The position numbers and the translations under genes were made by a program. Under the pieces are notes generated by a model, which did not search any database, was not told where the DNA came from, and was given only the letters and a program-made list of their open reading frames with translations. A DNA stretch of 55,819 nt from a virus (Duplodnaviria > Caudoviricetes). Positions 2,479 to 53,930 of the stretch are shown here, in pieces (within the stretch, counting starts at the first letter, position 1; every line of letters begins with the position of its first letter). The stretch is from IMG/VR virus record IMGVR_UViG_3300044832_000059, positions 1-55,819 of that record. One strand, written 5' to 3'.

Positions 2479-2689
2479 TTGGTGTTAAGAAAATGTTCTG
2501 TATAATACTGCATCGATACCCTATTGTCGCATCACCTTCAACTTTTGTTGATAAAATAATCTCTGTAACAGGTATCTTCTTTGGACTCCACATGGGAACA
2601 AGTATTGATTGTTCCTCAATAAACTGTGCATCCTGATCGAGAACTTCTATTCTCTGCCCATTCTTTGCATTAATCAAATAAGTAATCAT
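2462..2689 (-). CDS. Hypothetical protein
   Basis: ORF track; operon coupling. Confidence 0.55.
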   Translation of the reverse strand: MITYLINAKNGQRIEVLDQDAQFIEEQSILVPMWSPKKIPVTEIILSTKVEGDATIGYRCSIIQNIFLTPNEKEK

Positions 2690-2831
2690 TATTTCTTGTT
2701 CTCTTCTTACCGAAGTCCCTTATCCTACAAGCATTATCAAAATAAAGACGAGGAGGATACGAATGCTTTGACTGTTTCTCCTGCTTTATCACCTTTCCAC
2801 ATCCACAAGCGCATAGTCGTTCAGCAATCAT
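2670..2831 (-). CDS. Small CACGCG zinc-finger protein (53 aa, below track cutoff)
   Basis: MIAERLCACGCGKVIKQ...RLYFDNACRIRDF; first gene after the leftward promoter. Confidence 0.6.
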   Translation of the reverse strand: MIAERLCACGCGKVIKQEKQSKHSYPPRLYFDNACRIRDFGKKRTRNNDYLFD

Positions 2832-2842
2832 ACTTCTCCCTA

Positions 2843-2872
2843 GTTATAAACCAAAAAAGATAGGAATGTCAA
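2843..2872 (-). promoter_or_regulatory. Leftward sigma70-like promoter
   Basis: TTGACA (2872-2867), N18, TATAAC (2848-2843). Confidence 0.5.
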
Positions 2873-2891
2873 CTATCAATAGGGATCGATG

Positions 2892-2921
2892 TTGACACAT
2901 ATTATAGTAATACTATATACT
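2892..2921 (+). promoter_or_regulatory. Rightward sigma70-like promoter upstream of pentamer array C
   Basis: TTGACA (2892-2897), N18, TATACT (2916-2921). Confidence 0.65.
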
Positions 2922-2941
2922 ATGAAACAGGTATACCTACC

Positions 2942-3062
2942 GTCGGGGTAAGTTGTGTTGGGGTGGGATCGGGCATGGCAGTCAGGGTTAGTCTAGTCAA
3001 ATTATGTCAAGGCATGTTGTGGCAGTCATGGAGAGTTAGGTTATGGCAAGGAGAGTCATGAT
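2942..3062 (+). ncRNA. Pentamer-periodic (G[G/T]Y-NN) array C; candidate guide RNA
   Basis: GTC gg GGT aa GTT gt GTT gg GGT gg GAT cg GGC at GGCAGTC ag GGT ta GTC ta GTC aa ATT at GTC aa GGC at GTT gt GGCAGTC at GGA ga GTT ag GTT at GGC aa GGA ga GTC at. Delimiters at 2977 and 3021. Confidence 0.8.
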
Positions 3063-3080
3063 GAAAGGGGGTGAATAATA

Positions 3081-3443
3081 ATGAGTGAAGATGTATTAAA
3101 AAAATTTTCAAGTAATACTAATATTCTCAAGTTCAATGAGGATGGAGAGATCTCTGGAATATACAAAAAGGTGTATGAGGAAGATGATCCATTCAGTAAG
3201 GATGGAGGAAAAAGGCTTATTTATCTTATTAAGTCTGATGACGACAATAAGGAGAAGCAGCTTTCTTCAACATCAAAGCGACTTGCGAGAGCGATGTATG
3301 AATCAGGTGCAAATTTTGGGGATCATATCACGATTATGCGTTTTGGTGAAAAATACGAAACAGCATTTAAAGTGAAAGTGTCTGCAAAAGAACAAGTAAC
3401 TGAAACTGAAGAAGCAGTTCCTGATATCGCAGCAGACTTTTAA
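3081..3443 (+). CDS. Putative single-stranded DNA-binding (OB-fold-like) protein
   Basis: 120 aa, beta-rich pattern, acidic tail ending in Phe (EEAVPDIAADF); strong SD AAAGGGGGTGA. Confidence 0.55.
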   Translation: MSEDVLKKFSSNTNILKFNEDGEISGIYKKVYEEDDPFSKDGGKRLIYLIKSDDDNKEKQLSSTSKRLARAMYESGANFGDHITIMRFGEKYETAFKVKVSAKEQVTETEEAVPDIAADF

Positions 3444-3444
3444 G

Positions 3445-3560
3445 GGCAGTCATGGTGGGTCTAGTTATGTTATGTCAAGTCATTTTATGTTTTGGCAGTC
3501 ATGGAGCGTTGGGGCGAGTCATGGACAGGTTGGGAGCGGCAGGAATGGTTTCATGTCTAA
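3445..3560 (+). ncRNA. Pentamer-periodic array D; candidate guide RNA
   Basis: GGCAGTC at 3445 and 3494, GGCAGGA at 3538. Segments are 42 and 37 nt, e.g. at GGT gg GTC ta GTT at GTT at GTC aa GTC at TTT at GTT tt. Confidence 0.78.
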
Positions 3561-3596
3561 TCTGGGGTGTTCTTCGGTCACAGGAGGGCATCCCTG

Positions 3597-4217
3597 ATGA
3601 GGTATGAAGTAATTATGAAAGTAGGATCAAAAACGAGTTTACATTTAAAATCAGGCGCATACGCAGCAATGCTAGGAAGAATGCGTTGTTTTTCTTGTAG
3701 AAAAAAGATTGTTGTACTGTTAGGAGGTAAGATACAAGATCTTCTTTGGGAAGATAAATTTTATTGTGAAGGATGTATCTTGCAGGTATCTCATGGTATT
3801 AAAATGCCAAGACAAATCTTTAATCCAATTTATTGGATACCTTGTCCTATCGAAGGATGTAAAAAGTATCGCAAACGATCTTTTCCTTCATGCTCAGAAC
3901 ATTTTGTATTAGTACCAAGCAAAAATCCTCCTGGAACTGCAAAAAAACTGAGAAGAAAAATCTATTATGAAGTAAAAAGGAAACCAAAAGTAACTGATTC
4001 ATCATTTAATTCTCATGGTGATACAGGAACTCTTAAAAAAGACCTCGCTTTTTGTCAAAATTACGACTGTCCTGATAAAAAACCACTACTAAGAAAAGAA
4101 ATGTACAAAATGAGAGTTGGTAATCTGAGTTTACGACCAATGTACTTTTGCTCTGTATGGTGTAAATTTGTTATAAAGGGAGAGAATCCTTCTGAAAGAT
4201 ATAAAGAATGGGTTTGA
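3597..4217 (+). CDS. Cys-rich multi-zinc-finger basic protein
   Basis: Several CxxC/CxxxxC pairs and YFCSVWCK; ATG 3597 follows AGGAGG. Confidence 0.6.
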   Translation: MRYEVIMKVGSKTSLHLKSGAYAAMLGRMRCFSCRKKIVVLLGGKIQDLLWEDKFYCEGCILQVSHGIKMPRQIFNPIYWIPCPIEGCKKYRKRSFPSCSEHFVLVPSKNPPGTAKKLRRKIYYEVKRKPKVTDSSFNSHGDTGTLKKDLAFCQNYDCPDKKPLLRKEMYKMRVGNLSLRPMYFCSVWCKFVIKGENPSERYKEWV

Positions 4218-4221
4218 CCTC

Positions 4222-4250
4222 TTGACATTTCTTCTGTTTTTTTCTATAAA
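4222..4250 (+). promoter_or_regulatory. Sigma70-like promoter
   Basis: TTGACA, N17, TATAAA. Confidence 0.6.
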
Positions 4251-4277
4251 TATCATGCTAGAAGAGATAGGTTATTT

Positions 4278-4344
4278 AAGACTCTTTGATGTGGGGTTTG
4301 GGAGACCTAACCCATCTAGCACCTCACATTAAGGGGTCTTTTTT
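4278..4344 (+). terminator. Intrinsic terminator/attenuator hairpin
   Basis: 4278-4297 pairs with 4321-4340 (20 bp including 4 G-U), followed by a T run. Confidence 0.65.
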
Positions 4345-4869
4345 ATGTTTAAATTATTACACTCTCAACATAGGTATTCAGTAATCAAGCGTATAAAAAA
4401 AGACTCTTTAGGAAGAGAATACGTAATATGGGTATGTAAATCTTGTCCTCATCTTAAAATTAGATACATTAATTTAGAAAAGGGATAGAGCAGCAGAGTA
4501 GATTAACTGCAACCTACCGTAAGAACCATTGACAGGGATGTAACAAGCGGTTTCCCGTCCTTTAACTGTCAGTAAGTGTTCAGCTAGACATCTGTGAGGT
4601 GAAGACCAAGCCAGTGATGCTGATAATAAAAACAACGAGGTTCTGGTGTACTTATTCTTATAGGGAAGGAGAGAGTATATATACTCTAGTTTTGTCATGC
4701 AATATAAATACTATTTACTTTTAGAACTTGAAGTGAGAGTAAAATACAAAGAAAAGTTACTCAATAACTGGAAGAAAGGAGTACCTTTCTTTACTCTTGA
4801 GCCATATGAAAAGAAATACATTCTAACAATGTGTAAGAAAGATATTGATTGGGGACAATATAACAAAGT

Positions 4870-5106: not shown

Positions 5107-5129
5107 TTGTTTTTTTTTAAGGTAAAAGA

Positions 5130-6344
5130 ATGAGTAATATCATATCATTTGACATCATGAAGTACACAAAGGACACACTAGGTTTTCAGCCTAGTGCAAA
5201 AGCTTTGACAAGTATTTTATCTGTTGTTAAGGCAAACTTTCCTGGAGTAACACACATTGCTTTTTCAATTCCTCTTAATTCTACGGATCAATTTAAGCAG
5301 TATGGGACTACTCCTTCCCCTCTTTCTGTTGAAGCGTTTACTGATATGGTTCTTGATGTGATTCACAATGCAGGGTATGGAACGATTATCAGAGGTACTG
5401 ATTGTGGTATGGAGCAAATCTATAATTTTCCTCTTATATCGAAGAACCCTACCTTTTATACCACTCAGGTGGTAGGGTGGTTAAATCTTCATAAGTCACA
5501 TCTAGCAAACGGTGATGTTGGGGCATTCTATACTGAAGCTGATGGGCATATCAATTACAACGGTGCATCTCCAGTTGACGAAGGGTCACATGACTGGAGA
5601 ACTGATTACAATGCTCTCTGGCAACAATTGCCTCTTACGGTTAAGAAGTGGGGTACAGCAAATGGGTTATCACTGTTATGTCACACCTCAGTAAATGGAA
5701 CTTCTATTTCTAATGCATCGTATGATGGGAGGACGTTTAATGTGAGTGGGGCAGATCAGTTGCAGAATCAGGATGCTATTAATGCTCAGGGTGGGATGAT
5801 TATTGACTGGTACAACTATGGGAATGCCCCAACGGATGAGGCTGGGTATATTTCGTGGTATAAGGAGTCACTTGATTTCTTTTCTAGGTTGCATAGTGGG
5901 AATAGTATTTTCGTTCAGGAGTGGGGGGATACGAGGGGAGATAAGGGTGGTGTAATTCAGAAAAACGATCCTGGGTTGTCGGCAAACTTGGCAGATCAAG
6001 TATTCTTTCCTTATTTGAAATCAGGGAAAATGTTTGGGATAAATTTCTGGAATTTGTTTGATACGCCTCAAGAGGGTATCTTAAGTGCTGGAGGAAATGA
6101 CATTATGTATTTGAATGGTGGGGGAGCAGTGATGCTTAATCAAAAAGGGATACTTCTTGCAAGCATTTTTAAGAAATGGTTTGGAGGGCTTACACCTACA
6201 CCAGTGCCGACACCCGTTCCAACTCCGACACCCATTCCTACGGGTATTACAGTGTCATCAGAGGGGGTTCCAGTAGGGTCTCCCCATTATCATGATCTTA
6301 TCTTTAATGGGAAAGTGTTGGGGAAGATAATTATTTACTATTAA
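5130..6344 (+). CDS. Putative glycoside hydrolase (clan A-like TIM barrel) with Pro/Thr linker
   Basis: FYTEAD and IFVQEWG acidic motifs, GINFWNL, and a PTPVPTPVPTPTP linker. Confidence 0.55.
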   Translation: MSNIISFDIMKYTKDTLGFQPSAKALTSILSVVKANFPGVTHIAFSIPLNSTDQFKQYGTTPSPLSVEAFTDMVLDVIHNAGYGTIIRGTDCGMEQIYNFPLISKNPTFYTTQVVGWLNLHKSHLANGDVGAFYTEADGHINYNGASPVDEGSHDWRTDYNALWQQLPLTVKKWGTANGLSLLCHTSVNGTSISNASYDGRTFNVSGADQLQNQDAINAQGGMIIDWYNYGNAPTDEAGYISWYKESLDFFSRLHSGNSIFVQEWGDTRGDKGGVIQKNDPGLSANLADQVFFPYLKSGKMFGINFWNLFDTPQEGILSAGGNDIMYLNGGGAVMLNQKGILLASIFKKWFGGLTPTPVPTPVPTPTPIPTGITVSSEGVPVGSPHYHDLIFNGKVLGKIIIYY

Positions 6345-10090: not shown

Positions 10091-11224
10091 TTATCTTGCG
10101 TAGATAATCTTTCTTGTCGATTGCTTTGACACTACCTTGTCAACTGCTCGCTGTGCCTCAATACATGAGGGGCACTCTCTCTTTTTGAGATGATTGCGAC
10201 AATGAACACAAAGCTTTTTTTCTTCTTTATCAATGAGTTTTTGTTTACTCTTTGAAGAATCAAAACTAGATCCACCACCAGGAGATAGGGAAAGTACTTG
10301 TTCGCCTTCAATAACTTCTGATATGCCCCTTGCCATGTCTCTTTGACTCTCTCTATTCATCCACCAATCAAGATAATCATCTTCCTCATCTATTGAGGGA
10401 TTTTTTGATTGATGCTTGGCATAGTCTCTTTGCCACTTGTTATAGTCAGACGCATAACTTCCCACGTATGTATCAGCACTAGAATACTTTGAACTACTTG
10501 CGTAATGCTCCGAAAAGTACGGCTTTGCTTGTATCGTTACTTTACTTACTGCAATTGACCCATTCAGTGAATAAAAGCTGTACTGTATATTCTGCCCCCC
10601 GTCAACAAACTGAAAACCTCTATGGCCCCTGAGTGCCTTACGCAAGTGATCTATATCACTGGAGTAATACACTTGATTGCCTCGTATCGCATAACTAAAC
10701 ACTTGGTCATGTACTGCTACATTAAGCGTATCAAGCTCTCTTTGATCCACGTAAGGAATAGCAAATGATCCTTGTAACTCTTTAAATGCATCAAACTTAT
10801 TTTTCTTATGATTCAAGAGATATCCAATGATTTGACTATCAACCTCATACTCGACCCCAAACTTTCTCTCAAGTTCAAAGAAATTACTCAGTACCCCGTT
10901 ATGAGTGAAAAAGTAATCACCCTCTTTAAATGGATGAGCGTTCTCACTTGTTACCGCACCATGCGTTGCAAACCGTGTATGTCCCAAAATCGTTATAAAC
11001 GGTTGACGACGATATGCACAAAGTAATGTTATAAGCTTTTGATCCTTGAAAAAGGTATCAGCTTCGACAATGTTTTTATAGATAATTGCCTTACTCGGCT
11101 CTTGTCCAATAAGCGCAAGCCCTGTACTATCACGACCTCGTGACACGTTGAGTTCGCCTAACTTCTTAATGATCCCCGTTGTTTGTTTTGTTGGATTGCC
11201 TGTAAATCCGTAAATACCGCACAT
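10091..11224 (-). CDS. Class II (Ntn) glutamine amidotransferase
   Basis: MCGIYG N-terminus, SRGRDSTG, GHTRFATHG, NAHPF, HNGV, VDSQ. Confidence 0.93.
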   Translation of the reverse strand: MCGIYGFTGNPTKQTTGIIKKLGELNVSRGRDSTGLALIGQEPSKAIIYKNIVEADTFFKDQKLITLLCAYRRQPFITILGHTRFATHGAVTSENAHPFKEGDYFFTHNGVLSNFFELERKFGVEYEVDSQIIGYLLNHKKNKFDAFKELQGSFAIPYVDQRELDTLNVAVHDQVFSYAIRGNQVYYSSDIDHLRKALRGHRGFQFVDGGQNIQYSFYSLNGSIAVSKVTIQAKPYFSEHYASSSKYSSADTYVGSYASDYNKWQRDYAKHQSKNPSIDEEDDYLDWWMNRESQRDMARGISEVIEGEQVLSLSPGGGSSFDSSKSKQKLIDKEEKKLCVHCRNHLKKRECPSCIEAQRAVDKVVSKQSTRKIIYAR

Positions 11225-11262
11225 AGTAAATAATTATAGGATAGTAGTAATGCTACTTAATC

Positions 11263-11712
11263 CTATAATGTCTTTTCACCTCCTTTCATAAATTGACCCT
11301 TATTGTTTCGCTTTCTTTGCATATTATGGTATTGAGCATGACATATCTTATGAGCCTTGGATATGTTATTCTTGATATATCCTATAGCGTTATCTATTCG
11401 ATGAATAATCAATGAAAATTCTATAGGTTTGTTACAAAATAGGCACACATTTGGTAGTTTCTCAATGTCTTCTTTTGTTACTGTTACTGTTCTGTTTTTG
11501 TATGATTCAGTGTGATTGATTCTCCAATTCATATTTTTGATAATTGCACTCCCTCTTTTACTTGCACATGCTTTACATTCTGGTCGCAAGCCGTCCGAGC
11601 TTCTTTTGTCCTTGTCAAATTGATAAGCATATCGTTTCTTCTTGCAGATACTACATGCTTTCTCAAGCATAAATTCTTTACCGCAATGTATACATAAATG
11701 GTTACATTCCAT
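11263..11712 (-). CDS. HNH-type homing endonuclease-like protein
   Basis: CSICK...DGLRPECKAC N-terminal domain; CLFC...IHRIDNAIGYIKNNI...H..CH. Confidence 0.75.
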   Translation of the reverse strand: MECNHLCIHCGKEFMLEKACSICKKKRYAYQFDKDKRSSDGLRPECKACASKRGSAIIKNMNWRINHTESYKNRTVTVTKEDIEKLPNVCLFCNKPIEFSLIIHRIDNAIGYIKNNISKAHKICHAQYHNMQRKRNNKGQFMKGGEKTL

Positions 11713-11793
11713 ATAAAACCATTATACTACACTTTTTTGCTTAATAATTCCCTCTAGGCTCTCAACTAGAGGAAACTATAAACAAACAAAGTA

Positions 11794-13032
11794 TTAACTT
11801 TGTAAATTTGCATACTCAGCCTCATAAGCTCTATTGATCGTTCTATAGTCCTGTTCAGCCTTTGTATATGTCTTTTGTGCCTTTTGTATCTTTTTAATGT
11901 TCTTAATGATTTTACCGGCACTTTCTTGCTGCTTGGCTAGATGATCGAATAAGAACTTATGCACTCGACCTTTGAAATAGACCTCTTGCTTCTCAGTCAG
12001 ACCTAACATATTGCATATATTTGTGATCTTTTGGTCTGAGATCTTTTGGTCAAACAACGCAGTCACTTCACGATGATTGTAATTTTTCAAACAATAGGTG
12101 AAGAACAAAAGCATCAAGTTTACCCACTCAATGACTTTCTTGTATTGCGTTGTCCCTGCATGTAACCGTATCTCAATCGTCCCATGTTGACTCAACGCTT
12201 GCAGATTCATCGTTTGATACCTGCCATTGTTTGTCGAACTTAATTGGTTGATAAGATTCTGTTTACCTCTCAAGAGCTTTCTTCCATTCTTTTGGTCATG
12301 AACATATTGCGAAAGATATCTTTTACAATACGTATTGTTAAATCTTGACCGTGGTTGCGTCGCAAGAAGAAAGTCTTCTATCGCACTCCACGTTAAAATA
12401 ATCCTATTCATGATAAGAGGCGTGAAAAAGCGTTTATTACTCACATGTAAATGAAACCCACATGATGTATTGATATAGACATCGTTGTCAGCAAATGCAT
12501 CACATAGTTTTTTCGTTTCCGCTTTTAGCTCTGTATACGTAAAAGGTCTTTCACCCTTGAACTCTACCCCTTCTGTGTCACTGTCAGTCTCAATTGACCC
12601 GTCACTGTCCCATTCAAATGGTAAGTTACTTACCGCACCCCGTAAATCATCCTCCTGCTCATCAGGTACTAAAGTCTCTAGCTCTATGCCTAACTTAAAG
12701 GATTTATAAGGAATTTTAGGAAGCTCACGTTGTTTAATAATAAAAGGTTTTTTTGTAATACTACTCACCCCCTTTAGTACTTCTGTTTTGTTAGTTTCAA
12801 CGTACGGGGATAACATGCAGTCAGACCATGACCACCTGCTTTGTGATTCGATTTCAATGCTTATCTCATATGAAGAACTATTGATTCTAATTATTGTCGC
12901 ATATCTGCCTATGAGGCTTTCCATGTCTCTATTAGTAGAGCAACAATTTTCTGTTCTTTCCCCATTAGCTCTATAACAATAGCCTGGTGGGTGTGTTTTT
13001 ATAATGACTCTATCGCCTATTTTGTAATTCAT
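11794..13032 (-). CDS. Putative amidoligase (COOH-NH2 ligase, Amidoligase_2-like)
   Basis: LGIELE, DSDGSI, GVEF, NTSCGFHLHVS, RY..MNL, GTIEIRLHAGT. Confidence 0.88.
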   Translation of the reverse strand: MNYKIGDRVIIKTHPPGYCYRANGERTENCCSTNRDMESLIGRYATIIRINSSSYEISIEIESQSRWSWSDCMLSPYVETNKTEVLKGVSSITKKPFIIKQRELPKIPYKSFKLGIELETLVPDEQEDDLRGAVSNLPFEWDSDGSIETDSDTEGVEFKGERPFTYTELKAETKKLCDAFADNDVYINTSCGFHLHVSNKRFFTPLIMNRIILTWSAIEDFLLATQPRSRFNNTYCKRYLSQYVHDQKNGRKLLRGKQNLINQLSSTNNGRYQTMNLQALSQHGTIEIRLHAGTTQYKKVIEWVNLMLLFFTYCLKNYNHREVTALFDQKISDQKITNICNMLGLTEKQEVYFKGRVHKFLFDHLAKQQESAGKIIKNIKKIQKAQKTYTKAEQDYRTINRAYEAEYANLQS

Positions 13033-14571: not shown

Positions 14572-15153
14572 TCACTTAATCTAATTAGTATTATACTACA
14601 TACATATCAATATGTCAATAGATAGATATATCAATAGATAATAGTATACAAAAGATCTAAAAGAGAGGGAGGGGAAGGGAAAGAGTAACTGTAGATGTAG
14701 GACGTAACAGAACATACAAGAGAGAGGATAGACTCAAATGAACTATAACTATATTTTTGTTTATATATAGGTAGTCGTGCCTAGCTTCTCTTGTCTTGAG
14801 GCTAGACGTGTCGTATAAGGTATATTGTGCGACGTAAGATATTGAGCCAATACAATGCGATATAAGGTACATGAAATAAGATCAATGTATAAATCATCAT
14901 CTTATTATCTTTCTCTTGTTATAGAGCATCTCATGACATCAGTGAGGCTGTACACCCACCCCAATGAAGGAGTCCCATCGACTTGAGCGTTACTTCTACT
15001 GCCTCTAAAGGTGAAAAAAAATCATAAGTAATCCTTAAACTATTCAAATTTTCTACAGTATTTGAACTTGTTAATCCTTAGATTAATTCAATTTTATTTA
15101 CTATTTGAACTTACCGTATTGCCTTAAGTAAGGGAGTATTGTAAGATGGTTGT

Positions 15154-20877: not shown

Positions 20878-21012
20878 ATGGCAGTAAATAAAAAGAAAAC
20901 ATCAGTTAAAGGAAATCCTTTTCAGGCTGGTAAAAAAGTAGCAATTAAAGGAAATCCTTTTCAATCTGGTAAGAAACAATCAGTTAAAGGAAAAAAAGTA
21001 GCTTACAAGTAA
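20878..21012 (+). CDS. Small Lys-rich repeat peptide (44 aa)
   Basis: MAVNKKKTSVKGNPFQAGKKVAIKGNPFQSGKKQSVKGKKVAYK; SD AAGGAGGTG. Confidence 0.7.
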   Translation: MAVNKKKTSVKGNPFQAGKKVAIKGNPFQSGKKQSVKGKKVAYK

Positions 21013-32748: not shown

Positions 32749-34071
32749 ATGACATATTTAATATTATCACCCATCGCTCTCTCTCTTTTCCTTGTTAATA
32801 GGCTGGGAACCTCTAAGTCTGTTGATAAGGTTTATTTCTGGGTGGGAGACCCTTCTCTTCGTGCCACAGGTAAGCACATGGAGGACTACGAGGGGTATGA
32901 GAAGCTAGAGCTTGTTGATGACTACAATGAGGTGCTAAATGAGGAATCTAAGGATAATTTAATAATCTTTATTGATGATATTGGCATGGGAGAAACGGGG
33001 CATAGTCTTAGAAAGCAAGGATGGTCTGTTATCGGTGGCTCTCCTTTCGCAGACAAGATAGAAGATGAACGAGGTTATGCTCAGGAGGTTGTTCAGGGAA
33101 TCATGGAGGTCCCTGAAACATATGAGTTTGAGAGTTTTGATGATGGAATGAAATTTGCAAAGACCAGGAGTAAGGATGAGGTGTTCTTTTTTAAGCCAAA
33201 TGACTCACAAGTACCAAAAGATTATACGTATCGAGCGAAGAATATCAAGGATCTTGTCTCTGCACTCAAGAATTTCAAGGATGAATGGAAGTGGAAGGAA
33301 TCATTTCAGCTTCAGATGGAAGTTAAGGGGCAACTCATGGACTTCTCTTGTTTTATTGACAAGAATGGACAAATTCTTCCTAACTCTTTGATCTATTACT
33401 TTGAGAATAAGCCACTTATGAATGATGATGTTGGGCCACAAACAGGAGGAGCTATTGCTGTTGAATACGCTCACAAATTGGAAGGACAGTTTTATGAGAT
33501 CTTTCAAAAGCTCTTACCAAAACTGACAAGTGATGGCTATTATGGACAGATTGCTATCAACTGTATCATTGATGAAGAGACGAAGAAACCATACTTTTTA
33601 GAGTTTTGTGGTAGGGTTGGCTATCCTTCTCTTCCGGCAGACGTTACTTTGGTTGAGGATAAAGGAAAAACGGTTCACGACCTATTCCTGGCACTAGTTA
33701 CAGGTAGTCTGCCAAATCTCTTCCCAACCAATAAAATCGCAACAACGATCTGGATTGGTATTCCTCCATATCCTTTTAAGGAGGGGACAGATAAGAACAA
33801 GGGTGTGCCTATTTCCTGGGATAAGAAGTATGATAGCTACTTTTTCCCTTATTACGTGATGCATGATGAGAAGAAAGGTTTGGTTGCAGCAGGAGTTGGA
33901 GGGGAGATATTGCAAATTACTTGTTGTGATGTAACATTGAATGGTGCGGTATCGATGCTGATGGACACGTATCTTCCAACACTAAGACTCAAGAATGCAA
34001 TGTATCGAACGGACCTAGGCAAGGATGCACGAGATAGAATGAAGAAGTTGCAGGAGTGGAAAATTATATGA
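32749..34071 (+). CDS. PurD-like ATP-grasp ligase
   Basis: IGGS..ADKIEDER, FFKP, FENKPLMNDDVGPQTG, YFLEFCGRVGYP, MYRTDLG. Confidence 0.8.
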   Translation: MTYLILSPIALSLFLVNRLGTSKSVDKVYFWVGDPSLRATGKHMEDYEGYEKLELVDDYNEVLNEESKDNLIIFIDDIGMGETGHSLRKQGWSVIGGSPFADKIEDERGYAQEVVQGIMEVPETYEFESFDDGMKFAKTRSKDEVFFFKPNDSQVPKDYTYRAKNIKDLVSALKNFKDEWKWKESFQLQMEVKGQLMDFSCFIDKNGQILPNSLIYYFENKPLMNDDVGPQTGGAIAVEYAHKLEGQFYEIFQKLLPKLTSDGYYGQIAINCIIDEETKKPYFLEFCGRVGYPSLPADVTLVEDKGKTVHDLFLALVTGSLPNLFPTNKIATTIWIGIPPYPFKEGTDKNKGVPISWDKKYDSYFFPYYVMHDEKKGLVAAGVGGEILQITCCDVTLNGAVSMLMDTYLPTLRLKNAMYRTDLGKDARDRMKKLQEWKII

Positions 34072-40205: not shown

Positions 40206-40448
40206 ATGGGAATGACAGCAGATCAACAAATACAGACTCCTCCTACGCCACCTGTTACCAAGCAGGATAACGTTGGTGTTATTGAGTTTCTTTCAGGCAA
40301 AAAGACTTATACTGTTGCTTTTCTTATGGTTGTATATGCAGCGAGTGGATATCTTGTGCATCAATTAACACAGGATCAAGCAATGACGGTTGTCTTTAAT
40401 GCTCTTGCTGTCTCTGGTCTTCGCTCTGCGATAAATTCTCTGAAATAG
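40206..40448 (+). CDS. Putative holin
   Basis: LSGKKTY..A..., two TM segments, GLRSAI; follows the endolysin. Confidence 0.7.
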   Translation: MGMTADQQIQTPPTPPVTKQDNVGVIEFLSGKKTYTVAFLMVVYAASGYLVHQLTQDQAMTVVFNALAVSGLRSAINSLK

Positions 40449-41157
40449 CCCTCTTAAAATACTCCACATATTTACTTAATCCATAAGGACTAAGTGCTGG
40501 TGCAGTATTCACTTCACAAATAACTGCATGAGGAAGGGATATATCTGTTGGTTCACTCATAATGTCTACAGCTCCAAAATCAAGCTCTAGAGCTTTAATT
40601 GCCTTCTTTGCTAGTCGAATCACTTCAATGTCCCATTCATGCTGATACAGGTATCTGAATTTGAATCCCTTCTTATGATTCCAATTCTTTGCATGTAAAT
40701 CACCATTCTCTTTAATTGAAATTGCAATAAGCTTTCCTGAACCAATATGTACTCGATATTCTTTTGTTTTTGGGTAGTAAGGACTAAAATATTGTGCTCC
40801 TTTTCTTATTGCTCTTCTCACATCATAAATGTCATGACAGTAGAAGAACTTTCTTCCTCCCTTATGATGATCTGGTCGTGCGACGCAAGGGAACGTTTCA
40901 GGAGGAACAGAGAGAAGCTGAGGCGTTGGTAAGTCATTATTCATAAAGATACGTCTTGCGGTTTCTTTATTTGTTGCGTTTCTTACTGCTTGTGCTGAAT
41001 TGAGATAATTGCCTTGGGGTCCCGAAGTAGTTACTCCCCATCGTATAATTGTTGAAACAGGTGGCTTATAAGATGAATTGGGGTAGAAAAGAGAAAAGTC
41101 CAGCATTTCTGCTAGACTTTTGCTTGTCTTTGATTTAACACTAAAAATACCAATCAT
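40396..41157 (-). CDS. RimK-like ATP-grasp ligase (phage type)
   Basis: IIRWG, ATNK, EYRVHI, LDFGAVDI, EVNTAPAL. Confidence 0.9.
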   Translation of the reverse strand: MIGIFSVKSKTSKSLAEMLDFSLFYPNSSYKPPVSTIIRWGVTTSGPQGNYLNSAQAVRNATNKETARRIFMNNDLPTPQLLSVPPETFPCVARPDHHKGGRKFFYCHDIYDVRRAIRKGAQYFSPYYPKTKEYRVHIGSGKLIAISIKENGDLHAKNWNHKKGFKFRYLYQHEWDIEVIRLAKKAIKALELDFGAVDIMSEPTDISLPHAVICEVNTAPALSPYGLSKYVEYFKRAISENLSQSEDQRQQEH

Positions 41158-41171
41158 ATTCTCATATCCTT

Positions 41172-41417
41172 AACTGCCAAGACCTGCCTCGACAGAACTA
41201 AACACAACCCAACTTACCCTGACTGCCAATACACAACGGTACACAACACAACTCGCCACGACTGCCTGTACACTCCTTAACACTACCAGACTAACCCCGA
41301 CTGCCCTACCTGGACACAACACAACTCGCCACGACTGCCATGCATTGCCCCAACAGTCCCAGACCCTCCCTGACTGCCTTGCCATGACTAAACCCACCTT
41401 GACGGTCCTTGACTGCC
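41172..41417 (-). ncRNA. Pentamer-periodic array B (6 units); candidate guide RNA array
   Basis: Delimiters (GACTGCC on +) start at 41411, 41372, 41333, 41299, 41260, 41221 and 41172 (variant). Segments are 32, 32, 27, 32, 32 and 42 nt, e.g. aa GGA cc GTC aa GGT gg GTT ta GTC at GGC aa. Confidence 0.88.
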
Positions 41418-41423
41418 ACATAC

Positions 41424-41945
41424 TTATTTTTCTAGTTCAGATTCAATTTCTTTTAATTTCTCTTCGTTAATTATTCCATTTAATTCAGAAACCATTTTGT
41501 ATTTTTCCTGAGCATGTCTTATTTCACGAATAGCACTCCTTAATACAGCAGAATGTAATTTTTCATTGTTTAGTACTTGTTCGATAGGAAAGTATTTACG
41601 TACTTTCTTATCTTCCAAAGTAACTTGTACATTAAAGAATGCAGGTTTTTCTTTACCTTCTATGGTTACACGAACGCTATTGATGAGTAGACGAGCTTGC
41701 ATTAATCGGTATCGATCTCCAGCTCTCTTATCATCCCATTCAAAGATTCTATGAAGAGGAGATGTCTCTGATTTTGCTTCTTCGACAACATCTTGAGGTG
41801 TTAATTCTTCTCCATTTTTTGCAGCAAGAAGTTCTAAAGCCTTTTTATATTCTCCTCTTTTTGTGTTTTCTTTAATTTCAATGTAATCTTTTTTTGTTAA
41901 TGTTGATAGTAATCTATCATATCCTTGATATTTCATAATATTCAC
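41424..41945 (-). CDS. Accessory protein between arrays (LTP..VV..A....SPLH..FEWDD..A...YR..QAR.LI family)
   Basis: Recognisable phage motif; strong SD AAAGGGGGGTGA; arrays on both sides. Confidence 0.8.
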   Translation of the reverse strand: MNIMKYQGYDRLLSTLTKKDYIEIKENTKRGEYKKALELLAAKNGEELTPQDVVEEAKSETSPLHRIFEWDDKRAGDRYRLMQARLLINSVRVTIEGKEKPAFFNVQVTLEDKKVRKYFPIEQVLNNEKLHSAVLRSAIREIRHAQEKYKMVSELNGIINEEKLKEIESELEK

Positions 41946-41969
41946 CCCCCTTTACTAGAGTAGGACTTA

Positions 41970-42205
41970 CTTGCTGGTCCACACCTTGCCTTGACGCAAC
42001 TTGACGCAACTAGCCCAGACTGCCCTGACATACCCATCCACATCAAACCACTACATACCGAAACGGACCTTGCCTGGACTGCCATGCCCTACTGAGACAC
42101 AACCCAACTTGACATTCCCCGACTGCCACAACATGCCTTGACATAATTTGACTAGACTAACCCTGACTGCCAAGACCTGCCTCGCCCCAATTCACCATGA
42201 CTGCC
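41970..42205 (-). ncRNA. Pentamer-periodic array A (4 units plus tail); candidate guide RNA array
   Basis: Delimiters start at 42199, 42165, 42121, 42077 and 42018. Segments are 27, 37, 37 and 52 nt, then a tail tg GGC ta GTT gc GTC aa GTT gc GTC aa GGC aa GGT gt GGA. Confidence 0.88.
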
Positions 42206-42211
42206 AAGATA

Positions 42212-42250
42212 AGAAGAAGAGGTAATATGTAAAAGACTACCTCTTCTTCT
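42212..42250 (-). other. 13-bp perfect hairpin between the RAMP-like gene and array A
   Basis: AGAAGAAGAGGTA (42212-42224) / TACCTCTTCTTCT (42238-42250). Confidence 0.75.
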
Positions 42251-42258
42251 CGTTAAAA

Positions 42259-42864
42259 CTATTCATCAGTAGTTTCGATTTCGAACGTTCCATTATCGCC
42301 ATTTCGTTCTGGTCTCCATTCTCCAAGTCCTTGACTAAATCCTGCTCGTTGTAACAGATTAAGAACCTGTTCACTAGAGAGGATGTTGGCATCGAACTTA
42401 ATCATAAGTTCCATTGACCATCCTTCCACTTGTCCTCGGAAACGAATGTCGGCAGTTCCCATTCCTACAGTAACCATATCTTGTCTCATGGTTTTTTCCT
42501 TATAGGTAAGTGGAATGAATCCATCTTTATCTCCTTCGACAAAGAGTGCCCCACGAAGAATTGTCATTGGGACACCATTGATGAATCGTGCTGATCCGAC
42601 AATTGCTTGCTTAATATTTCGTGCTGGGAAAGCAATGTTTCCTTCTGAGTCGTAGTAGAAACTACTTTCGTATTCCTTTTCAGGATCACGAACCTCACGT
42701 CCTTTCTGAGCTTTTTTCATTTGCTTATCAAGGATCATTCTGATTGCTTTTTCGTCCCATTTATGAAAAATTAAGGGAGCAGTTCCGTTGATCTTAACTT
42801 TCATTAATTGAATGTTCATTGCGGGAATTGATAATCCCTGAACGTCTTTTTTTGCTATTGGCAT
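42259..42864 (-). CDS. Stand-alone RAMP/Cas7-like RNA-binding protein (candidate Vipr-type effector)
   Basis: N-terminal VKINGTAPLI strand, FPARNIKQAI (like Cas7 IPxxxxKGxxR), IRFR...WSMELMIKF, and C-terminal Gly loop AG...GLGEWRPERNGDNGTF; adjacent to the arrays. Confidence 0.78.
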   Translation of the reverse strand: MPIAKKDVQGLSIPAMNIQLMKVKINGTAPLIFHKWDEKAIRMILDKQMKKAQKGREVRDPEKEYESSFYYDSEGNIAFPARNIKQAIVGSARFINGVPMTILRGALFVEGDKDGFIPLTYKEKTMRQDMVTVGMGTADIRFRGQVEGWSMELMIKFDANILSSEQVLNLLQRAGFSQGLGEWRPERNGDNGTFEIETTDE

Positions 42865-44223: not shown

Positions 44224-44949
44224 TTAGTAAAACCTTATCTGGTTGGTTTTTAGGCCGTAATTGTAAATATCTTCAAGGTCACGAAGATATTCTTTTGTTG
44301 ATAATCGAGAACGCAGTCTCTCTCCTCGTTCAATAACTTTCTCTTGAAAAGTTTCTTTATCAACTTTACTCCATACCTTTTTGATTGCAGAGATGAAGTC
44401 TCGTGATCTCCATACCTGTCCTTCGGTATATGGTTTAAGTTTTGTCAAAGCTTGCGCTTCTTCATCAGCTTGTTTAAGAGATGTAACCTTAAACAATCCT
44501 GTTTTAAAGATGTATAATCGACCTCCTGACGAAATAGGAGACTCAGGTGATACGCCACTCAATAAGGAAACTGATACCGTTATCGGAAGATTATATTTAT
44601 CTAAGAAATCCTTAAGAATCATATATTCTTCGTTTTCTAGCTCAATATAACTGTCAAGATAATCTTGCAATGTCCATGGCTTTGTATTAACATTAAGACG
44701 ACGAACATCTTCAAGAGTTCCTTCTTCACGTTCAATGTAATAAAAGGGAACTTCAAGAATCTTTGCAGCTTCTAATCGATGTTGTCCATCAATAATTTTT
44801 CCGCTAGCTACGATAATGGGGTTTTCTTCAAGCATGTTTTTCTCCTGGATAGATTTAACCAAGTGACTGACATGACTTTTGTAGACCTTTCTGTTACCAA
44901 CAAAGGTATCAAATTGGTCGTAATTTGATGTTTTAACTATTGTATTCAT
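44224..44949 (-). CDS. ParB/Srx-like N-terminal domain protein
   Basis: GNR...HV..L..SI, NPIIV, IIDGQHRLEAAK, LN...KPW. Confidence 0.85.
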   Translation of the reverse strand: MNTIVKTSNYDQFDTFVGNRKVYKSHVSHLVKSIQEKNMLEENPIIVASGKIIDGQHRLEAAKILEVPFYYIEREEGTLEDVRRLNVNTKPWTLQDYLDSYIELENEEYMILKDFLDKYNLPITVSVSLLSGVSPESPISSGGRLYIFKTGLFKVTSLKQADEEAQALTKLKPYTEGQVWRSRDFISAIKKVWSKVDKETFQEKVIERGERLRSRLSTKEYLRDLEDIYNYGLKTNQIRFY

Positions 44950-48091: not shown

Positions 48092-48729
48092 TTTACGTAT
48101 CCACTTACCTTTCTTGCTAGGAATGCATGGGCTGGTTGCTTTCTCCATCCATAAACGAGCTTATCATGTGCATAGTCAAGTTCCCATACGAACTCAAAGT
48201 CTTTATCTAGATATTCATGGATGACTTCAGGGTTAACGTTGTGTGCATGGGCTTCATGGGGGTGAGAGTAAGCATTATCAATTGCGTGAATCATTGCTAC
48301 ATATGCTCCAGGTTTCATAAATGTGTAAAGTTGTCGTAAGAATTCTTGTGGTCTGTCAAAATGGTCTAGCGCATTAGTAATAATAATGAGATCAGCAAAT
48401 TTCAGATCACCTTGTATATCTTCTGCTTTTTTACTGAGACCATTATAAATTGGGTAGTTCTTTTTGTATTCATCAATGAGGGGATCAATACGGGTTGTCA
48501 GTCGTGATTTGAGTACCGTTGAAACGCCACCAAACGGCCCACAACCGATGTCATACACATGCATGTCAGAAGTATCAAGCGCATCAAGTCCCATCTGTTT
48601 TCGCAGGAGAGGATAGCGGATAATCTCCCTGATCCTTTTATCTCTATTGATTTGTGAATCATCAGAAAACCAAGAATCAAGTTCAGATTTTTGCGTCTTA
48701 TCAAAATTATTTGCTTTTGTATTCATCAA
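48088..48729 (-). CDS. Class I SAM-dependent methyltransferase
   Basis: VYDIGCGPFGG, IDPL, NALDH, MKPGA. Confidence 0.88.
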   Translation of the reverse strand: MMNTKANNFDKTQKSELDSWFSDDSQINRDKRIREIIRYPLLRKQMGLDALDTSDMHVYDIGCGPFGGVSTVLKSRLTTRIDPLIDEYKKNYPIYNGLSKKAEDIQGDLKFADLIIITNALDHFDRPQEFLRQLYTFMKPGAYVAMIHAIDNAYSHPHEAHAHNVNPEVIHEYLDKDFEFVWELDYAHDKLVYGWRKQPAHAFLARKVSGYVK

Positions 48730-49756
48730 GCATTAATTGAATCCCCTGCTTGGGACTCACGGTTGGCTTCCACCCAAGTGCTTTTTGCACTTTTGTTGTA
48801 TCTGATATGTAAATTCGTTGATCTGCATGTCTCCAAGGTTTGAATTCGAGCGTCGCTCCCTTTCCTGATATATTTTCAATATAAGAAATTGCTTCGATAA
48901 GAGAAAGCGTATTATCAATACCTCCTCCAACATTGAAAACATTCCCCTTAACAGTACTAATCTTCTCTAGCTCATCAAGATAAAGATTTGCAACATCTGA
49001 ACCAAACAACATATCTCTTACCTGTTTACCATCTCCGTAAATATTGATCTTTCCATCTCCCATCCCAATAGATCGAATGAAGAAATCAATCCACCCTTGA
49101 TCTTCCACGCCTTTTTGATAAAGCCCATAGATGCAACTCATACGATTAATAACAACAGGAACATCATACGTGTGAAAGTATTCTTGACAGTACGTGTCCC
49201 CTGTAAGCTTTGATGCACCATAAGGTGAGTGTGGGTACTTTTGGAATCCGTCAGTTGTAAAGCCTTCGTTAATACCACGAGGCGTTACCCCATCCATCCA
49301 TCCTTCTTTTGGTTGGTTCCACTCATAACGAGTCTCTTGTTCTTTTAAGGGAATAGTGTTAATCATGTCAGAATAACACTTGTTTGTTGATGCGTAGATT
49401 ACGGGGATTTTACCATGAGTTCGTGAGTATTCAAGAACATTTATTGTTCCTTGGGCATTAACCTCGAAGTCATAGAGAGGATGAGCAATGGACCAAGGAA
49501 TACCAGGGTTTCCAGCTCCATGCCATATTCCGACTATTTCTCTCTTAGGTAGTCTTCCGAAATCTTCTTGATTTCTAACATCTCCTCTAAATATTTCTAC
49601 TCCATGTTTTTGTAAGATAGCAATGTTCTCTTCAGATCCTTTTCTTATTAAGGAATCAAAAGCAATTACTTCGTATCCTCTTCTTCTTGCTTCTAGGCTG
49701 ATATTTGTACCTATAAATCCAACTCCTCCAGTGCAAATTAAAGTACCTTTATTCAT
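48707..49756 (-). CDS. NAD-dependent epimerase/dehydratase, CDP-paratose 2-epimerase (RfbE)-like
   Basis: TGGVGFIG, YASTNKCY, SPYGASK, RMSCIYG..Q.GVEDQGW, GDGKQVRD, WR.ADQ. Confidence 0.9.
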   Translation of the reverse strand: MNKGTLICTGGVGFIGTNISLEARRRGYEVIAFDSLIRKGSEENIAILQKHGVEIFRGDVRNQEDFGRLPKREIVGIWHGAGNPGIPWSIAHPLYDFEVNAQGTINVLEYSRTHGKIPVIYASTNKCYSDMINTIPLKEQETRYEWNQPKEGWMDGVTPRGINEGFTTDGFQKYPHSPYGASKLTGDTYCQEYFHTYDVPVVINRMSCIYGLYQKGVEDQGWIDFFIRSIGMGDGKINIYGDGKQVRDMLFGSDVANLYLDELEKISTVKGNVFNVGGGIDNTLSLIEAISYIENISGKGATLEFKPWRHADQRIYISDTTKVQKALGWKPTVSPKQGIQLMLDEYKSK

Positions 49757-50238
49757 TTTAGAAACCTCACTCTTCCTCCCCACGTATCAGTTTGTCGATG
49801 ACAAGAAACACAAAGGGTTCTTCCATTATCTATTGCATATCGCAAATCAGGATACAAGCTCCATGGCTTAATATGATCTGCTTCCAGTTTACCTCCACGA
49901 GTATTACAGGTTTGGCAGGTGTAATCATCCCTCATAAAAACTGCGGTTCTCCATATGATGTAATCTTGTCTTTGCATTAACATTTGTCGTTCACTTTTAG
50001 TTCCACCCTTATAATTTGCGGGTCTTACTCCTACTCTTTGTGCCGACATCATTGCTTTAGATTCAAAAGAATGAGTTTTTCCTGTGAATGGATTTTTAAC
50101 AAAACTATTATGTCCTGTTATATATTTTTTACAACGTCCTTTATAAATAGTCGTAAAGTCTCCACATCCACAAGCGCACTTAATTGGTTCAGGGATGGGG
50201 TTTGTCATGAATCTACCGTTAGCTCCTCGTATTTTCAT
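49753..50238 (-). CDS. HNH homing endonuclease with NUMOD3-like motif
   Basis: GKTHSFESK..MS, WRTAVFMRDDYTCQTC, LEADHIKP, NGRTLCVSCH. Confidence 0.9.
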   Translation of the reverse strand: MKIRGANGRFMTNPIPEPIKCACGCGDFTTIYKGRCKKYITGHNSFVKNPFTGKTHSFESKAMMSAQRVGVRPANYKGGTKSERQMLMQRQDYIIWRTAVFMRDDYTCQTCNTRGGKLEADHIKPWSLYPDLRYAIDNGRTLCVSCHRQTDTWGGRVRFLK

Positions 50239-50253
50239 AAGATAGTAATAATG

Positions 50254-50760
50254 CTAAACAATTCCTTCATACTTTTCAATGAACAAATCAACATCTCGCA
50301 TGTATGATATAGCTACTTTAATTTCTTTGTCTTCCCATTCCCACCATTTAATAAGAGATAATCTCCTTATTTGTTCGTTAGTAAATCTCTTTCTTAATAC
50401 CTTCCAAGGGTTTCCGATTGCAACAGTATAGGGAGGGACATTTGATCCAATAACTGAATTTGAACCAATAATTGATCCGTCTCCAACTGTTACTCCTTCA
50501 AGAATCGAAACATCTTCTCCAATCCATACGTCATGTCCAACGGTAACTTTACCATCCATTTTAGAAGGATAGTAATCTACTCCCCAAACTTCTTTAAAAG
50601 GAAACTGAGTTACTGCTTGTGGGTTTTCAACACAAGGATGTTGCCCAGAGATAATCTTTAACCCTGACGCAATACTACAAAAGTTACCAAACGTTAACAA
50701 AACACCTTCATAGCATTTTATATCGTCTGGAATAAACGTATGCCTTCCTGCGATTATAAT
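50254..50760 (-). CDS. CatB/Vat-related hexapeptide O-acetyltransferase (start uncertain: ATT 50760 or ATG 50835)
   Basis: GNFCSIA, VGHDVWIG, GVTVGDGSIIG, VPPY....GNP, IKWWEW. Confidence 0.85.
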   Translation of the reverse strand: MIIAGRHTFIPDDIKCYEGVLLTFGNFCSIASGLKIISGQHPCVENPQAVTQFPFKEVWGVDYYPSKMDGKVTVGHDVWIGEDVSILEGVTVGDGSIIGSNSVIGSNVPPYTVAIGNPWKVLRKRFTNEQIRRLSLIKWWEWEDKEIKVAISYMRDVDLFIEKYEGIV

Positions 50761-50951
50761 GAGATGTTCCCCCCTCGAATGATGTAAATTCCTGCACCGA
50801 GAAAAATTACTCCAACAAGAACATTCCAATACCATGCTCCTAACCCAACACCAAAGAGAAAAGTAAGTCCAACTGCTGCTAGTAGTAACGCTATTCCTAC
50901 AAATGCCAAAATGATTCCAATTATCTTTATGATTATTTCTGATAAACTCAT
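50754..50951 (-). CDS. Small two-TM membrane protein
   Basis: Hydrophobic, 65 aa. Confidence 0.6.
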   Translation of the reverse strand: MSLSEIIIKIIGIILAFVGIALLLAAVGLTFLFGVGLGAWYWNVLVGVIFLGAGIYIIRGGNISL

Positions 50952-51769
50952 ATTATCTCACCCCATTTCTTATCTTTGTTAACCTCGTATATTCCCTTGT
51001 GAATGTTATCTTCTGATATCTTGCCATTTCTTTCTGCTGCATCATATATATTGTACTTGTAAAAGCTCTTATCATGCCACTGATGGATTACTGCAATATC
51101 AGAGAATTTACTTACTCCATGACCTATAAGCGCAAGCCTATTGAATAGATCAAAATCATCAAACCCATGCCCCTCAAAGCTTTCATCAAATCCCCCAACT
51201 TTGAGTAGCCATTCTTTTCTTGTTGCAAAGAGGACTCCAGCATTACAATGCTTCTCCCCTGTTATTCCCCAATCACTATCAGGTGCTTGATCGTTTTGGG
51301 GACGATGTGAATCAGTTAGCACTGCATAGGGGTGAGTGATAATCTTACGAGGATCTGCAAAGGATTCTTCTGGTAAGTTCTTATATATCTTCTCCCCCAT
51401 TGTCCATACTTGAGATGCAAGAATTGTATTATCTGGATATTCTTCCATCTTCTTTAAGAGTTGTTCAATCGTATTGCCAACATGAAGACCTTCTGGTTCT
51501 GTAAAAATGATAACATCACCTGTTGCTTGTTTAATGCCAACATTACGGGGAATACAAGAAATGCGTGGTTCAGTATGATCTATATAGATGTATCTCATAT
51601 CCACCCTGATAGACCAAATTGGCTCGATAAGATCCTGTGTTCCGTCAGTTGAACCATCATCTACGATGATTATTTCATCTGGTAAAACATCTTGGCAAAG
51701 AATAGTTTGTAATCCTCGATTAAGTTGTTCTTTACGATTATATGTACAAATTACTATAGACGTGCTCAT
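50948..51769 (-). CDS. Glycosyltransferase family 2
   Basis: SIVICTYNR, IIIVDDGSTD, RNVGI, GGFDESFEGHGFDD. Confidence 0.92.
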   Translation of the reverse strand: MSTSIVICTYNRKEQLNRGLQTILCQDVLPDEIIIVDDGSTDGTQDLIEPIWSIRVDMRYIYIDHTEPRISCIPRNVGIKQATGDVIIFTEPEGLHVGNTIEQLLKKMEEYPDNTILASQVWTMGEKIYKNLPEESFADPRKIITHPYAVLTDSHRPQNDQAPDSDWGITGEKHCNAGVLFATRKEWLLKVGGFDESFEGHGFDDFDLFNRLALIGHGVSKFSDIAVIHQWHDKSFYKYNIYDAAERNGKISEDNIHKGIYEVNKDKKWGEII

Positions 51770-52167: not shown

Positions 52168-52168
52168 A

Positions 52169-53928: not shown

Positions 53929-53930
53929 AA

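Follow-up and report, generated by a model that had tools for sequence, protein, structure and literature searches.

Putative staggered vrRNA arrays flank an SSB-like gene at a second locus of a soil phage that encodes a Vipr homolog

The soil phage genome recorded as IMGVR_UViG_3300044832_000059 (55,819 nt or 55.8 kb, 38% GC; the window below is this whole record) carries two tandem-repeat arrays, designated C and D, on either side of a gene for a protein resembling single-stranded-DNA-binding proteins (SSB-like gene). Two further arrays (A and B) lie beside the gene for a homolog of Vipr, the RAMP-family protein of the VIPR (Viral Interference Programmable Repeat) systems; the features of both loci are collected in Table 1. 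The C/D block is a small island on the + strand amid genes on the − strand. It opens with a predicted promoter that matches the consensus at 11 of 12 positions and is the top-scoring site within 2500–4400; the number of promoter-like sites in this interval was not raised (5, versus 6.4 in shuffled sequences). Array C begins 20 nt downstream of this promoter, as proposed in the initial annotation, and its 3′ end directly adjoins the ribosome-binding site that precedes the SSB-like gene. The stop codon of the latter is separated from the start of array D by 2 nt. The cysteine-rich protein encoded further downstream was without a family match in Pfam and PHROG searches. Comparison of 2600–4300 with phage sequences by blastn gave no match, and Rfam at the gathering threshold reported tRNA-Gln alone, without a hammerhead ribozyme although the motif CTGATGA is present at 3594–3600.

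Table 1. Coordinates of the features at the C/D locus and at the vipr locus, in the numbering of the window. NN, variable dinucleotide; aa, amino acids.
Feature	Position	Strand	Description or basis
Promoter, sigma-70/sigma-A-type	2892..2921	+	TTGACA-18-TATACT; consensus match
Array C	2942..3062	+	three putative staggered vrRNA guides; sequence parse
Guide C0	2942-2981	+	7 NN
Guide C1	2981-3025	+	8 NN + AG
Guide C2	3025-3059	+	7 NN
Array C boundaries	2977-2983 and 3021-3027	+	GGCAG/GTC (GGCAGTC)
SSB-like gene	3081..3443	+	OB-fold protein, 120 aa; conserved acidic C-terminal tail
Array D	3445..3542	+	two putative staggered guides; sequence parse
Guide D1	3449-3498	+	9 NN + AG
Guide D2	3498-3542	+	8 NN + AG
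Array D boundaries	3445-3451, 3494-3500; degenerate GGCAGGA at 3538-3544	+	
Predicted hairpin 3′ of array D	3560..3598	+	encloses AGGAGG of the next gene; minimum-free-energy and centroid structures
Cys-rich (CxxC) protein gene	3597..4217	+	206 aa; same operon as the SSB-like gene
Terminator-like hairpin + T run	4321..4337	+	candidate end of a short transcript
Array A	41173..41417	-	six putative staggered guides (7, 7, 6, 7, 7, 9 NN); sequence parse
Conserved vipr-accessory (vap-like) gene	41424..41945	-	170-173 aa; phrog_15946, E 2e-25
Array B	41941..42205	-	five putative staggered guides (6, 8, 8, 11, 11 NN); sequence parse
vipr	42259..42864	-	201-aa RAMP-family protein; homology to SUSP1 Vipr

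Arrays C and D consist of tandem 5-nt units on the + strand, in which a G(G/T)H triplet is followed by two variable bases (NN). The units are punctuated by the boundary GGCAGTC, which reads as GGC-A-GTC: a single base stands between two triplets and the register slips by one. The window contains 17 copies of the motif where 3.39 would be expected (standard deviation 2.01), and none of 100 shuffles reached this number. Fifteen of the 17 copies fall in four clusters (arrays A–D), four of them on the + strand (at 2977, 3021, 3445 and 3494) and eleven on the − strand (within 41221–42205). The segments between delimiters measure 37 nt in C, 42 nt in D, 32/32/27/32/32 nt in A and 27/37/37/52 nt in B, and their lengths equal 5n+2 in 11 of 11 cases; the second 37-nt segment of D, listed in the initial annotation, closes at the degenerate boundary. 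A periodicity detector, set to accept stretches of 12 in-register pentamers with G[GT] in nine or more of them, marked only four regions in the genome (2956–3030 and 3434–3562 on the + strand; 41159–41433 and 41941–42187 on the − strand), with 53 qualifying windows against none in each of 20 shuffled genomes. The initial annotation had assigned to C and D one triplet alphabet, one GGCAGTC delimiter and segments of 5n+2; the parse, the motif counts and the detector bear this out, and the NN strings that it had read from the two arrays agree unit for unit with our parse; its coordinates and segment lengths hold as well.

Unit statistics were compiled for arrays A–D together (16 guides, 126 units). 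G occupies position 1 in 119 units. At position 2, T (77) prevails over G (47) and A (2), and at position 3, C (58) and T (50) prevail over A (18); all four bases are used at positions 4 and 5. The triplet counts include GTC (40), GTT (27), GGA (12) and GTA (6). The first triplet is GTC in 16 of 16 guides, and guides that precede another guide terminate in GGC-A-G. The C/D locus and the vipr locus agree in boundary motif, first triplet and scaffold composition. In addition, guide C1 with its boundaries (2976–3027) is identical over 52 nt to 42172–42121 of array B on the − strand; one guide is thus duplicated between the loci. The arrays are no more structured than shuffled sequences (z-values of −0.71 and −0.93, the latter for the whole of 3441–3600), as expected of a protein-bound linear guide.

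The protein encoded at 42259–42864 matched SUSP1 Vipr (PDB entry 36pp_D) in a phmmer search of the PDB with an E-value of 2.8e-8, the alignment covering 168 residues (19–186 of the window protein against 2–181 of SUSP1 Vipr), and it matched phrog_4652 with an E-value of 2.7e-33. In the HMMER alignment, the guanine-holding residues of SUSP1 Vipr (H17, R138 and D177-W178-R179) correspond to H34, R143 and E182-W183-R184. The change from D177 to E182 is conservative, and GEWRP is also kept in the Viprs of two related viral loci (L001 and L002, see below). The SUSP1 residues that contact the DNA backbone, K33 and R39, align to K50 and R56. The pocket for the third base of the triplet (Y3), formed in SUSP1 by E71, M72, C173 and T175, aligns approximately to R82, N83, Q178 and L180; these altered residues would be in line with the looser third base in the arrays of the window.

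VIPR systems were first described in 2026, and the text of the original reports (PMC13142463; 10.64898/2026.04.26.720927) presents Vipr as a minimal phage protein of the RAMP family, with a RAMP/RRM core, a G-loop and a thumb. Seven VIPR types and accessory genes vap1–6 are distinguished. The guide of Vipr, the vrRNA, is described there as a tract of GGY-NN pentamers, each bound by one Vipr protomer with the triplet buried; the NN pairs read double-stranded DNA, every third target base being skipped, and binding silences the transcription of competing mobile elements. The characterised homologs act on DNA in trans, as stated in the text of PMC13142463. According to the text of the longer bioRxiv version of PMC13142463 (10.64898/2026.04.26.720920), the triplet may follow "a related consensus" besides GGY, guides do not target their own genome, and, in the legend of its Fig. 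S18, staggered arrays consist of vrRNAs that overlap by 1 nt, the end of one being the start of the next. Solo vrRNAs in elements without vipr, among them satellites and VIPR-null phages, are documented in the text of a later preprint (10.64898/2026.10.15.759431), where those of satellites redirect the VIPR of a helper. Arrays in relatives that lack the RAMP-like gene would therefore be compatible with a role as guides. The proposal in the initial annotation that the triplets form a scaffold and the NN pairs a code, read by the RAMP-like protein, matches what these texts say of homologous systems and is in accord with the Vipr homology.

At the vipr locus the vap-like gene sits between arrays B and A, and the array-gene-array layout seen around the SSB-like gene is mirrored there, as had been pointed out. 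At both loci, the open reading frames that flank the arrays have the G-rich strand as their sense strand. From 42259 to 2942, across the ends of the record, the distance is ∼16.5 kb, in agreement with the earlier figure of about 16 kb around the circle. An exact terminal direct repeat of 127 nt (1–127 and 55693–55819) indicates a complete phage genome that is circularly assembled or terminally redundant. The arrays had been called orphans; this holds in that C and D lie away from vipr, and the term is loose in that the same genome carries vipr and the accessory gene.

Related loci were compared for the presence of vipr, arrays and the accessory gene. The viral contig L001 encodes a Vipr that is 74% identical, followed by an array of 700 nt, whose units are G(G/T)H-NN as in the window and whose boundaries read GGCAGT, an immediately adjacent tRNA-Asn gene (5356–5428) and then a vap-like gene. 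In the high-GC contig L002, a Vipr of 41% identity is followed by a vap-like gene and by an NNGGC array with GGC-A-GGC boundaries. A pair of GGCAGT motifs at 4405–4452 of L002 was rejected as a further array; it lacks periodicity and falls inside a coding sequence. Downstream of the L002 array, the next gene has no detectable homology to the SSB-like gene. Relatives of Vipr are encoded in 155 records of cultured phages, all below 60% identity, including 76 of Escherichia, 27 of Mycobacterium, 17 of Salmonella and 7 of Gordonia phages. Arrays with a GG period adjoin vipr in five of six further loci, namely three from cultured phages and two from contigs of metagenome-assembled genomes (L010, L011, L013, L014 and L015), and GGC-A-GGY junctions are found in L010, L013, L014 and L015. 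The sixth, L012, with a partial Vipr match of 28%, showed no array and no vap-like homolog. In L013, which is Gordonia phage UmaThurman (NC_031249), the array (3612–3893 of the locus) lies under the hypothetical gene gp40 (33362–33685), after the vipr homolog gp39; gp40 is probably an open reading frame called over vrRNAs. A vap-like homolog stands beside vipr in seven of the eight loci (L001, L002, L010, L011, L013, L014 and L015), on which ground we take the 170-aa gene of the window to be an accessory gene. Two related contigs (G001 and G002, 63% and 69% complete) contained arrays beside vipr only and no second array locus. ParB-like genes were noted near vipr on two occasions: one upstream of vipr in the window (44227–44949), and a candidate in L001 (3271–3945), the latter by a DGQHR motif in the translation.

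Two further elements were observed at the vipr locus. Downstream of the vipr stop codon and ahead of the first array B boundary, an A/G-rich inverted repeat occupies 42206–42258 (− strand), and a weak promoter-like site (9 of 12 positions) ends at 42206; this element may be an attenuator or an internal start for array B. At 41153–41180 (− strand) a promoter-like sequence, TTGGCA-16-TATGAT (10 of 12), shares bases with the degenerate boundary that closes array A (GGCAGTT) and lies upstream of a gene for a 253-aa ATP-grasp-like protein.

The phage was present in soil metagenomes of several studies, which allowed natural variation to be inspected. Strain X2, from soil of another study, is represented by a contig over 2126–3064 that differs at 8 positions: 3 in the 816 nt preceding the array and 5 in array C. 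All five substitutions in the array (2965; AT to GG at 3028–29; GA to AT at 3033–34) fall on NN positions and none in the triplets. Such a restriction is what the diversification of guides on a fixed scaffold predicts, and is suggestive only. In the same strain 9 substitutions are clustered in 3093–3128, within the first 50 nt of the SSB-like gene, with none in 3129–3526, which suggests a small recombination tract. In another run (X3), a loose end at 3027 continues into the unit that comes after the shared guide in array B, and represents the copy of the repeat in B.

Potential targets were sought with a rule of NNx, i.e. with a 1-nt skip; the public collections were scanned for exact matches only. 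None of the 16 guides matched its own genome above shuffled guides. The best own-genome scores were 16/18 for D1 (reached by 3 of 100 shuffles) and 13/14 for C2 (5 of 100), and neither is significant with 16 guides tested. When the related loci were searched with the guides of the window, and the window with those of L001, only guide L1_8 stood out, with a p-value of 0.02 (0.005 at its first 8 units) among 22 tests, and in the whole contigs G001 and G002 the minimum p-value for guide matches was 0.06. In IMG/VR, D1 matched 28 heterogeneous loci with GC fractions of 0.16–0.39, in 2 of which xAG follows, and D2 matched 12 loci of 0.49–0.67, in none of which xAG follows; guides B4 and B5, with 22 positions each, gave no match there. 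The metagenome scan with D2+AG yielded 8 loci (6 distinct) of GC 0.46–0.67 that were mutually unrelated. The search for a host revealed no close relative of the phage among prokaryote genomes, and TerL is at most 33% identical to that of cultured phages.

The 120-aa protein encoded between arrays C and D, described as SSB-like in the initial annotation, bears that name with support from its predicted fold and its tail, not from family membership or function. It had no match in Pfam (including the SSB families), PHROG or, at the sequence level, the PDB, and no relatives in IMG/VR. A word-based search returned two close homologs only, and an exhaustive profile search 71 small relatives at E≤1e-3; among 57 family members, one matched phrog_9721 and one phrog_1192 (both SSB PHROGs), each weakly. 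With an alignment of 57 relatives the structure was modelled at a mean confidence (pLDDT) of 84.8, versus 49.8 for an earlier model, and the predicted order of secondary structure, beta-beta-beta-alpha-beta-beta, is that of an OB fold. Foldseek comparison of the better model with the PDB gave no match at E≤1e-3, the best being OB-fold proteins at 3e-3 to 3e-2; 15 viral models matched at E≤1e-3, two of which are named ssDNA-binding protein. In VIA-align, 36 chains reached Z≥5; almost all are nucleic-acid-binding proteins with an OB fold, and all values are below 8 and thus moderate. The top matches were domain DII of RuvBL2 (Z 7.6) and the yeast SSB Rim1 (Z 7.1, root-mean-square deviation 4.4 over 76 residues), and others included baculovirus LEF-3 (6.1), bacterial SSBs (6.0 for Bartonella, and 5.6), PriB (5.6) and T4 gp32 (5.4). 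The Atlas search found only unnamed viral clusters, with the Phi29 SSB at 0.82 as a lead only. The SSB of E. coli carries an acidic motif at its C-terminal tip. The C-terminal tail of the window protein is likewise acidic and ends in ...VPDIAADF, which is conserved in the three closest sequences; elsewhere in the family the last residues are ...LPF, ...VPF or ...DDF. The predicted protein is therefore like the OB-fold SSBs of phages and bacteria in the order of its fold, in its best structural matches to ssDNA binders and in the acidic tip with a terminal aromatic residue, and unlike them in lying outside the curated SSB sequence families. It is not a paralog of the vap-like gene product. No homolog of the SSB-like gene was found in the eight Vipr loci or the two related contigs, and there is thus no sign of it being a regular VIPR component.

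A few features elsewhere in the genome may be recorded here. Genes for glutamine-amidotransferase-like, amidoligase-like and ATP-grasp (RimK-like) proteins at 10094–13032 and 40399–41157 make up a metabolic set that is unusual for a phage. A nucleotide-sugar epimerase and several glycosyltransferase-like genes are clustered at 48710–55407 (− strand). Tandem repeats at 15029–15112 (43 nt, 2 copies) and 20906–20993 (39 nt, 2.3 copies) are unrelated to the arrays.

Judged from their sequence, arrays C and D very probably belong, as staggered vrRNA arrays, to the VIPR system of the phage itself. The boundary GGCA[G]TC fits the staggered layout as worded in the preprint, since one G is common to the unit GGC+AG and to GTC+NN, the unit after it; going by the legend, it implies the same 1-nt overlap as GGCA[G]GY in the actinophage relatives. 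With its small RAMP-family Vipr, an adjacent accessory gene, tandem pentamers of conserved triplet and variable dinucleotide on the sense strand, and the RNA-contacting H, R and (D/E)WR retained, the system resembles type II VIPR as known from SUSP1 and a P. fulva prophage. It differs from type II in that its triplets are mostly GTC/GTT, in that a pseudoknot tail is absent and in that the guides abut with a 1-nt overlap; the guides have 6–11 NN, versus 9–16 repeats in the text on type II. Like the solo or orphan vrRNAs (text of 10.64898/2026.10.15.759431), C and D lie away from vipr in an expression context of their own. The solos described in that text are from elements without vipr and vap, whereas the window genome keeps both and has one guide common to its loci; C and D are thus better regarded as a second locus than as solos. 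With class 1 CRISPR systems (crRNA on a Cas7 backbone) the parallel is a RAMP protein that polymerises on guide RNA and flips bases periodically. In contrast to those systems, neither repeat-spacer units nor Cas1/Cas2 are seen in the window, the arrays repeat every 5 nt with two informative bases in each unit of five, and the target would, by the text of the VIPR preprint, be read with a 1-nt skip.

In the mechanism that we propose, the host polymerase would start at about 2928 (the expected start is at ∼2928–2930, ∼13 nt ahead of the first guide C0) and produce one transcript with C0–C2, the SSB-like gene, D1–D2 and the Cys-rich gene, which may end at the terminator-like hairpin (4321–4337). 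The 5′ end of C0 would be made by initiation, in keeping with C0 being the sole guide without an upstream boundary. Cuts at or near the GGCAG/GTC junctions, introduced by a nuclease or set by filament boundaries, would release five guides of 7–9 pentamers. Vipr, encoded 16 kb away, would then polymerise on these guides, one protomer per pentamer, with G(G/T)H buried and NN presented, and the filament would bind double-stranded DNA by reading NNxNNx and silence it. Likely targets would be competing phages, satellites or prophages of the same soil host. The anatomy of the repeats, their departure from randomness, the Vipr homology with its retained RNA contacts, the recurrence of the layout beside vipr in relatives and the variation confined to NN between strains come from the sequences themselves. 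Filament assembly, the one-base skip and silencing are taken over from the text of the VIPR preprints, and we infer processing, loading in trans and the targets.

Several observations weigh against this assignment. The published GGY consensus is found in only 32 of the 126 triplets, and arrays A–D have no common structured 3′ tail, unlike the characterised type II vrRNAs; both may be differences within the kind, as the text of the preprint (10.64898/2026.04.26.720920) allows for a related consensus and for the staggered layout. By the same text, staggered arrays are not among the architectures confirmed by small-RNA sequencing. The exact scans produced no convincing DNA target, the matches being heterogeneous and of a base composition unlike that of this 38% GC phage. 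The comparison with strain X2 is suggestive only because adjacent pairs reduce the five substitutions to three events and because a recombination patch lies nearby. One RNA library contained two low-depth contigs (3073–3245 and 5114–5401), neither on an array and both possibly due to DNA carry-over.

Other functions of the arrays were considered. In principle, Vipr bound to the C leader and to D could act in cis and control the translation or stability of the SSB-like and Cys-rich mRNA, a role suggested by the position of C against a ribosome-binding site, by that of D, 2 nt after a stop codon and followed by a hairpin with the next AGGAGG, and by the scans that found no DNA target. Such a role is improbable, as the array-gene-array arrangement recurs at the vipr locus and in relatives, the NN differ between guides and strains in a way that a pure protein platform does not need, and the published homologs act on DNA in trans according to the text of PMC13142463. 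A decoy function, in which C and D would be competitor guides acquired to occupy or redirect the Vipr of a rival phage, has a precedent in the solo vrRNAs whose redirection of a helper's VIPR is documented in the text of 10.64898/2026.10.15.759431. The C/D block is a + strand island among − strand genes, and neither of the two related contigs has the SSB-like gene. Yet the two loci have the boundary motif, the opening GTC (16/16) and the make-up of the scaffold in common, and one guide is identical over 52 nt between them; the phage's own Vipr is then the simplest user, and we consider decoys quite improbable.

The repeats could also act as DNA, for instance as iterons, as a centromere for a ParB-like protein or as clustered primase sites (NNGTC). 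A ParB-like gene is indeed encoded in the genome, the arrays flank an SSB-like gene, and the pentamers presumably resemble T7-type primase sites. On the other hand, the strict strand asymmetry and the co-orientation with transcription argue for RNA, arrays adjoin a Vipr homolog in seven of eight loci, and the one-base slip of the register matches the description of staggered vrRNAs in the legend cited above; a role as DNA is highly improbable. A TRAP-like RNA sponge, a Rho-utilisation site on the C-rich strand, clustered primase sites (NNGTC) or Chi-like sites, and a centromere or iterons had been candidates before, and were dropped upon the match to the Vipr homolog.

Returning to the arrays as guides of the phage's own VIPR system, a broader proposal can be formulated, in which this clade reads a G-U-Y word through a rebuilt third-base pocket, expresses its guides from two separately regulated operons and employs an SSB-like helper. 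Taken jointly, this is doubtful. If it held, the G-U-Y word would tolerate A at the third base, unlike the GGY of the solved systems; the distal operon would be an early cassette driven by the host polymerase, with guides released from the untranslated sequence on either side of the SSB-like gene; and the SSB-like protein would aid the action of VIPR on unwound DNA, a part previously unrecognised.

VIPR itself, staggered arrays and vrRNAs away from vipr are already known from the text of the 2026 preprints. Particular to this phage are the scaffold dominated by GTC/GTT, the second, separately promoted locus in a vipr-bearing phage, the exact duplication of a guide between loci and the guides in the untranslated regions of the SSB-like gene; no mention of these four features was found in the text of the VIPR preprints, leaving aside their supplementary figures and tables. 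Besides those preprints, full-text literature searches returned only one preprint on a language model. As the scaffold is mostly GTC/GTT, programs that call arrays by GG[C/T]NN would largely miss those described here. The soil phage provides a clean low-GC example of the staggered type, with 16 guides in four arrays, an exact boundary word and two natural strains that differ, in array C, at guide positions only. It thereby offers a test case for the cutting of staggered arrays, for the strictness of the scaffold word and for guides that are spread over several transcription units.

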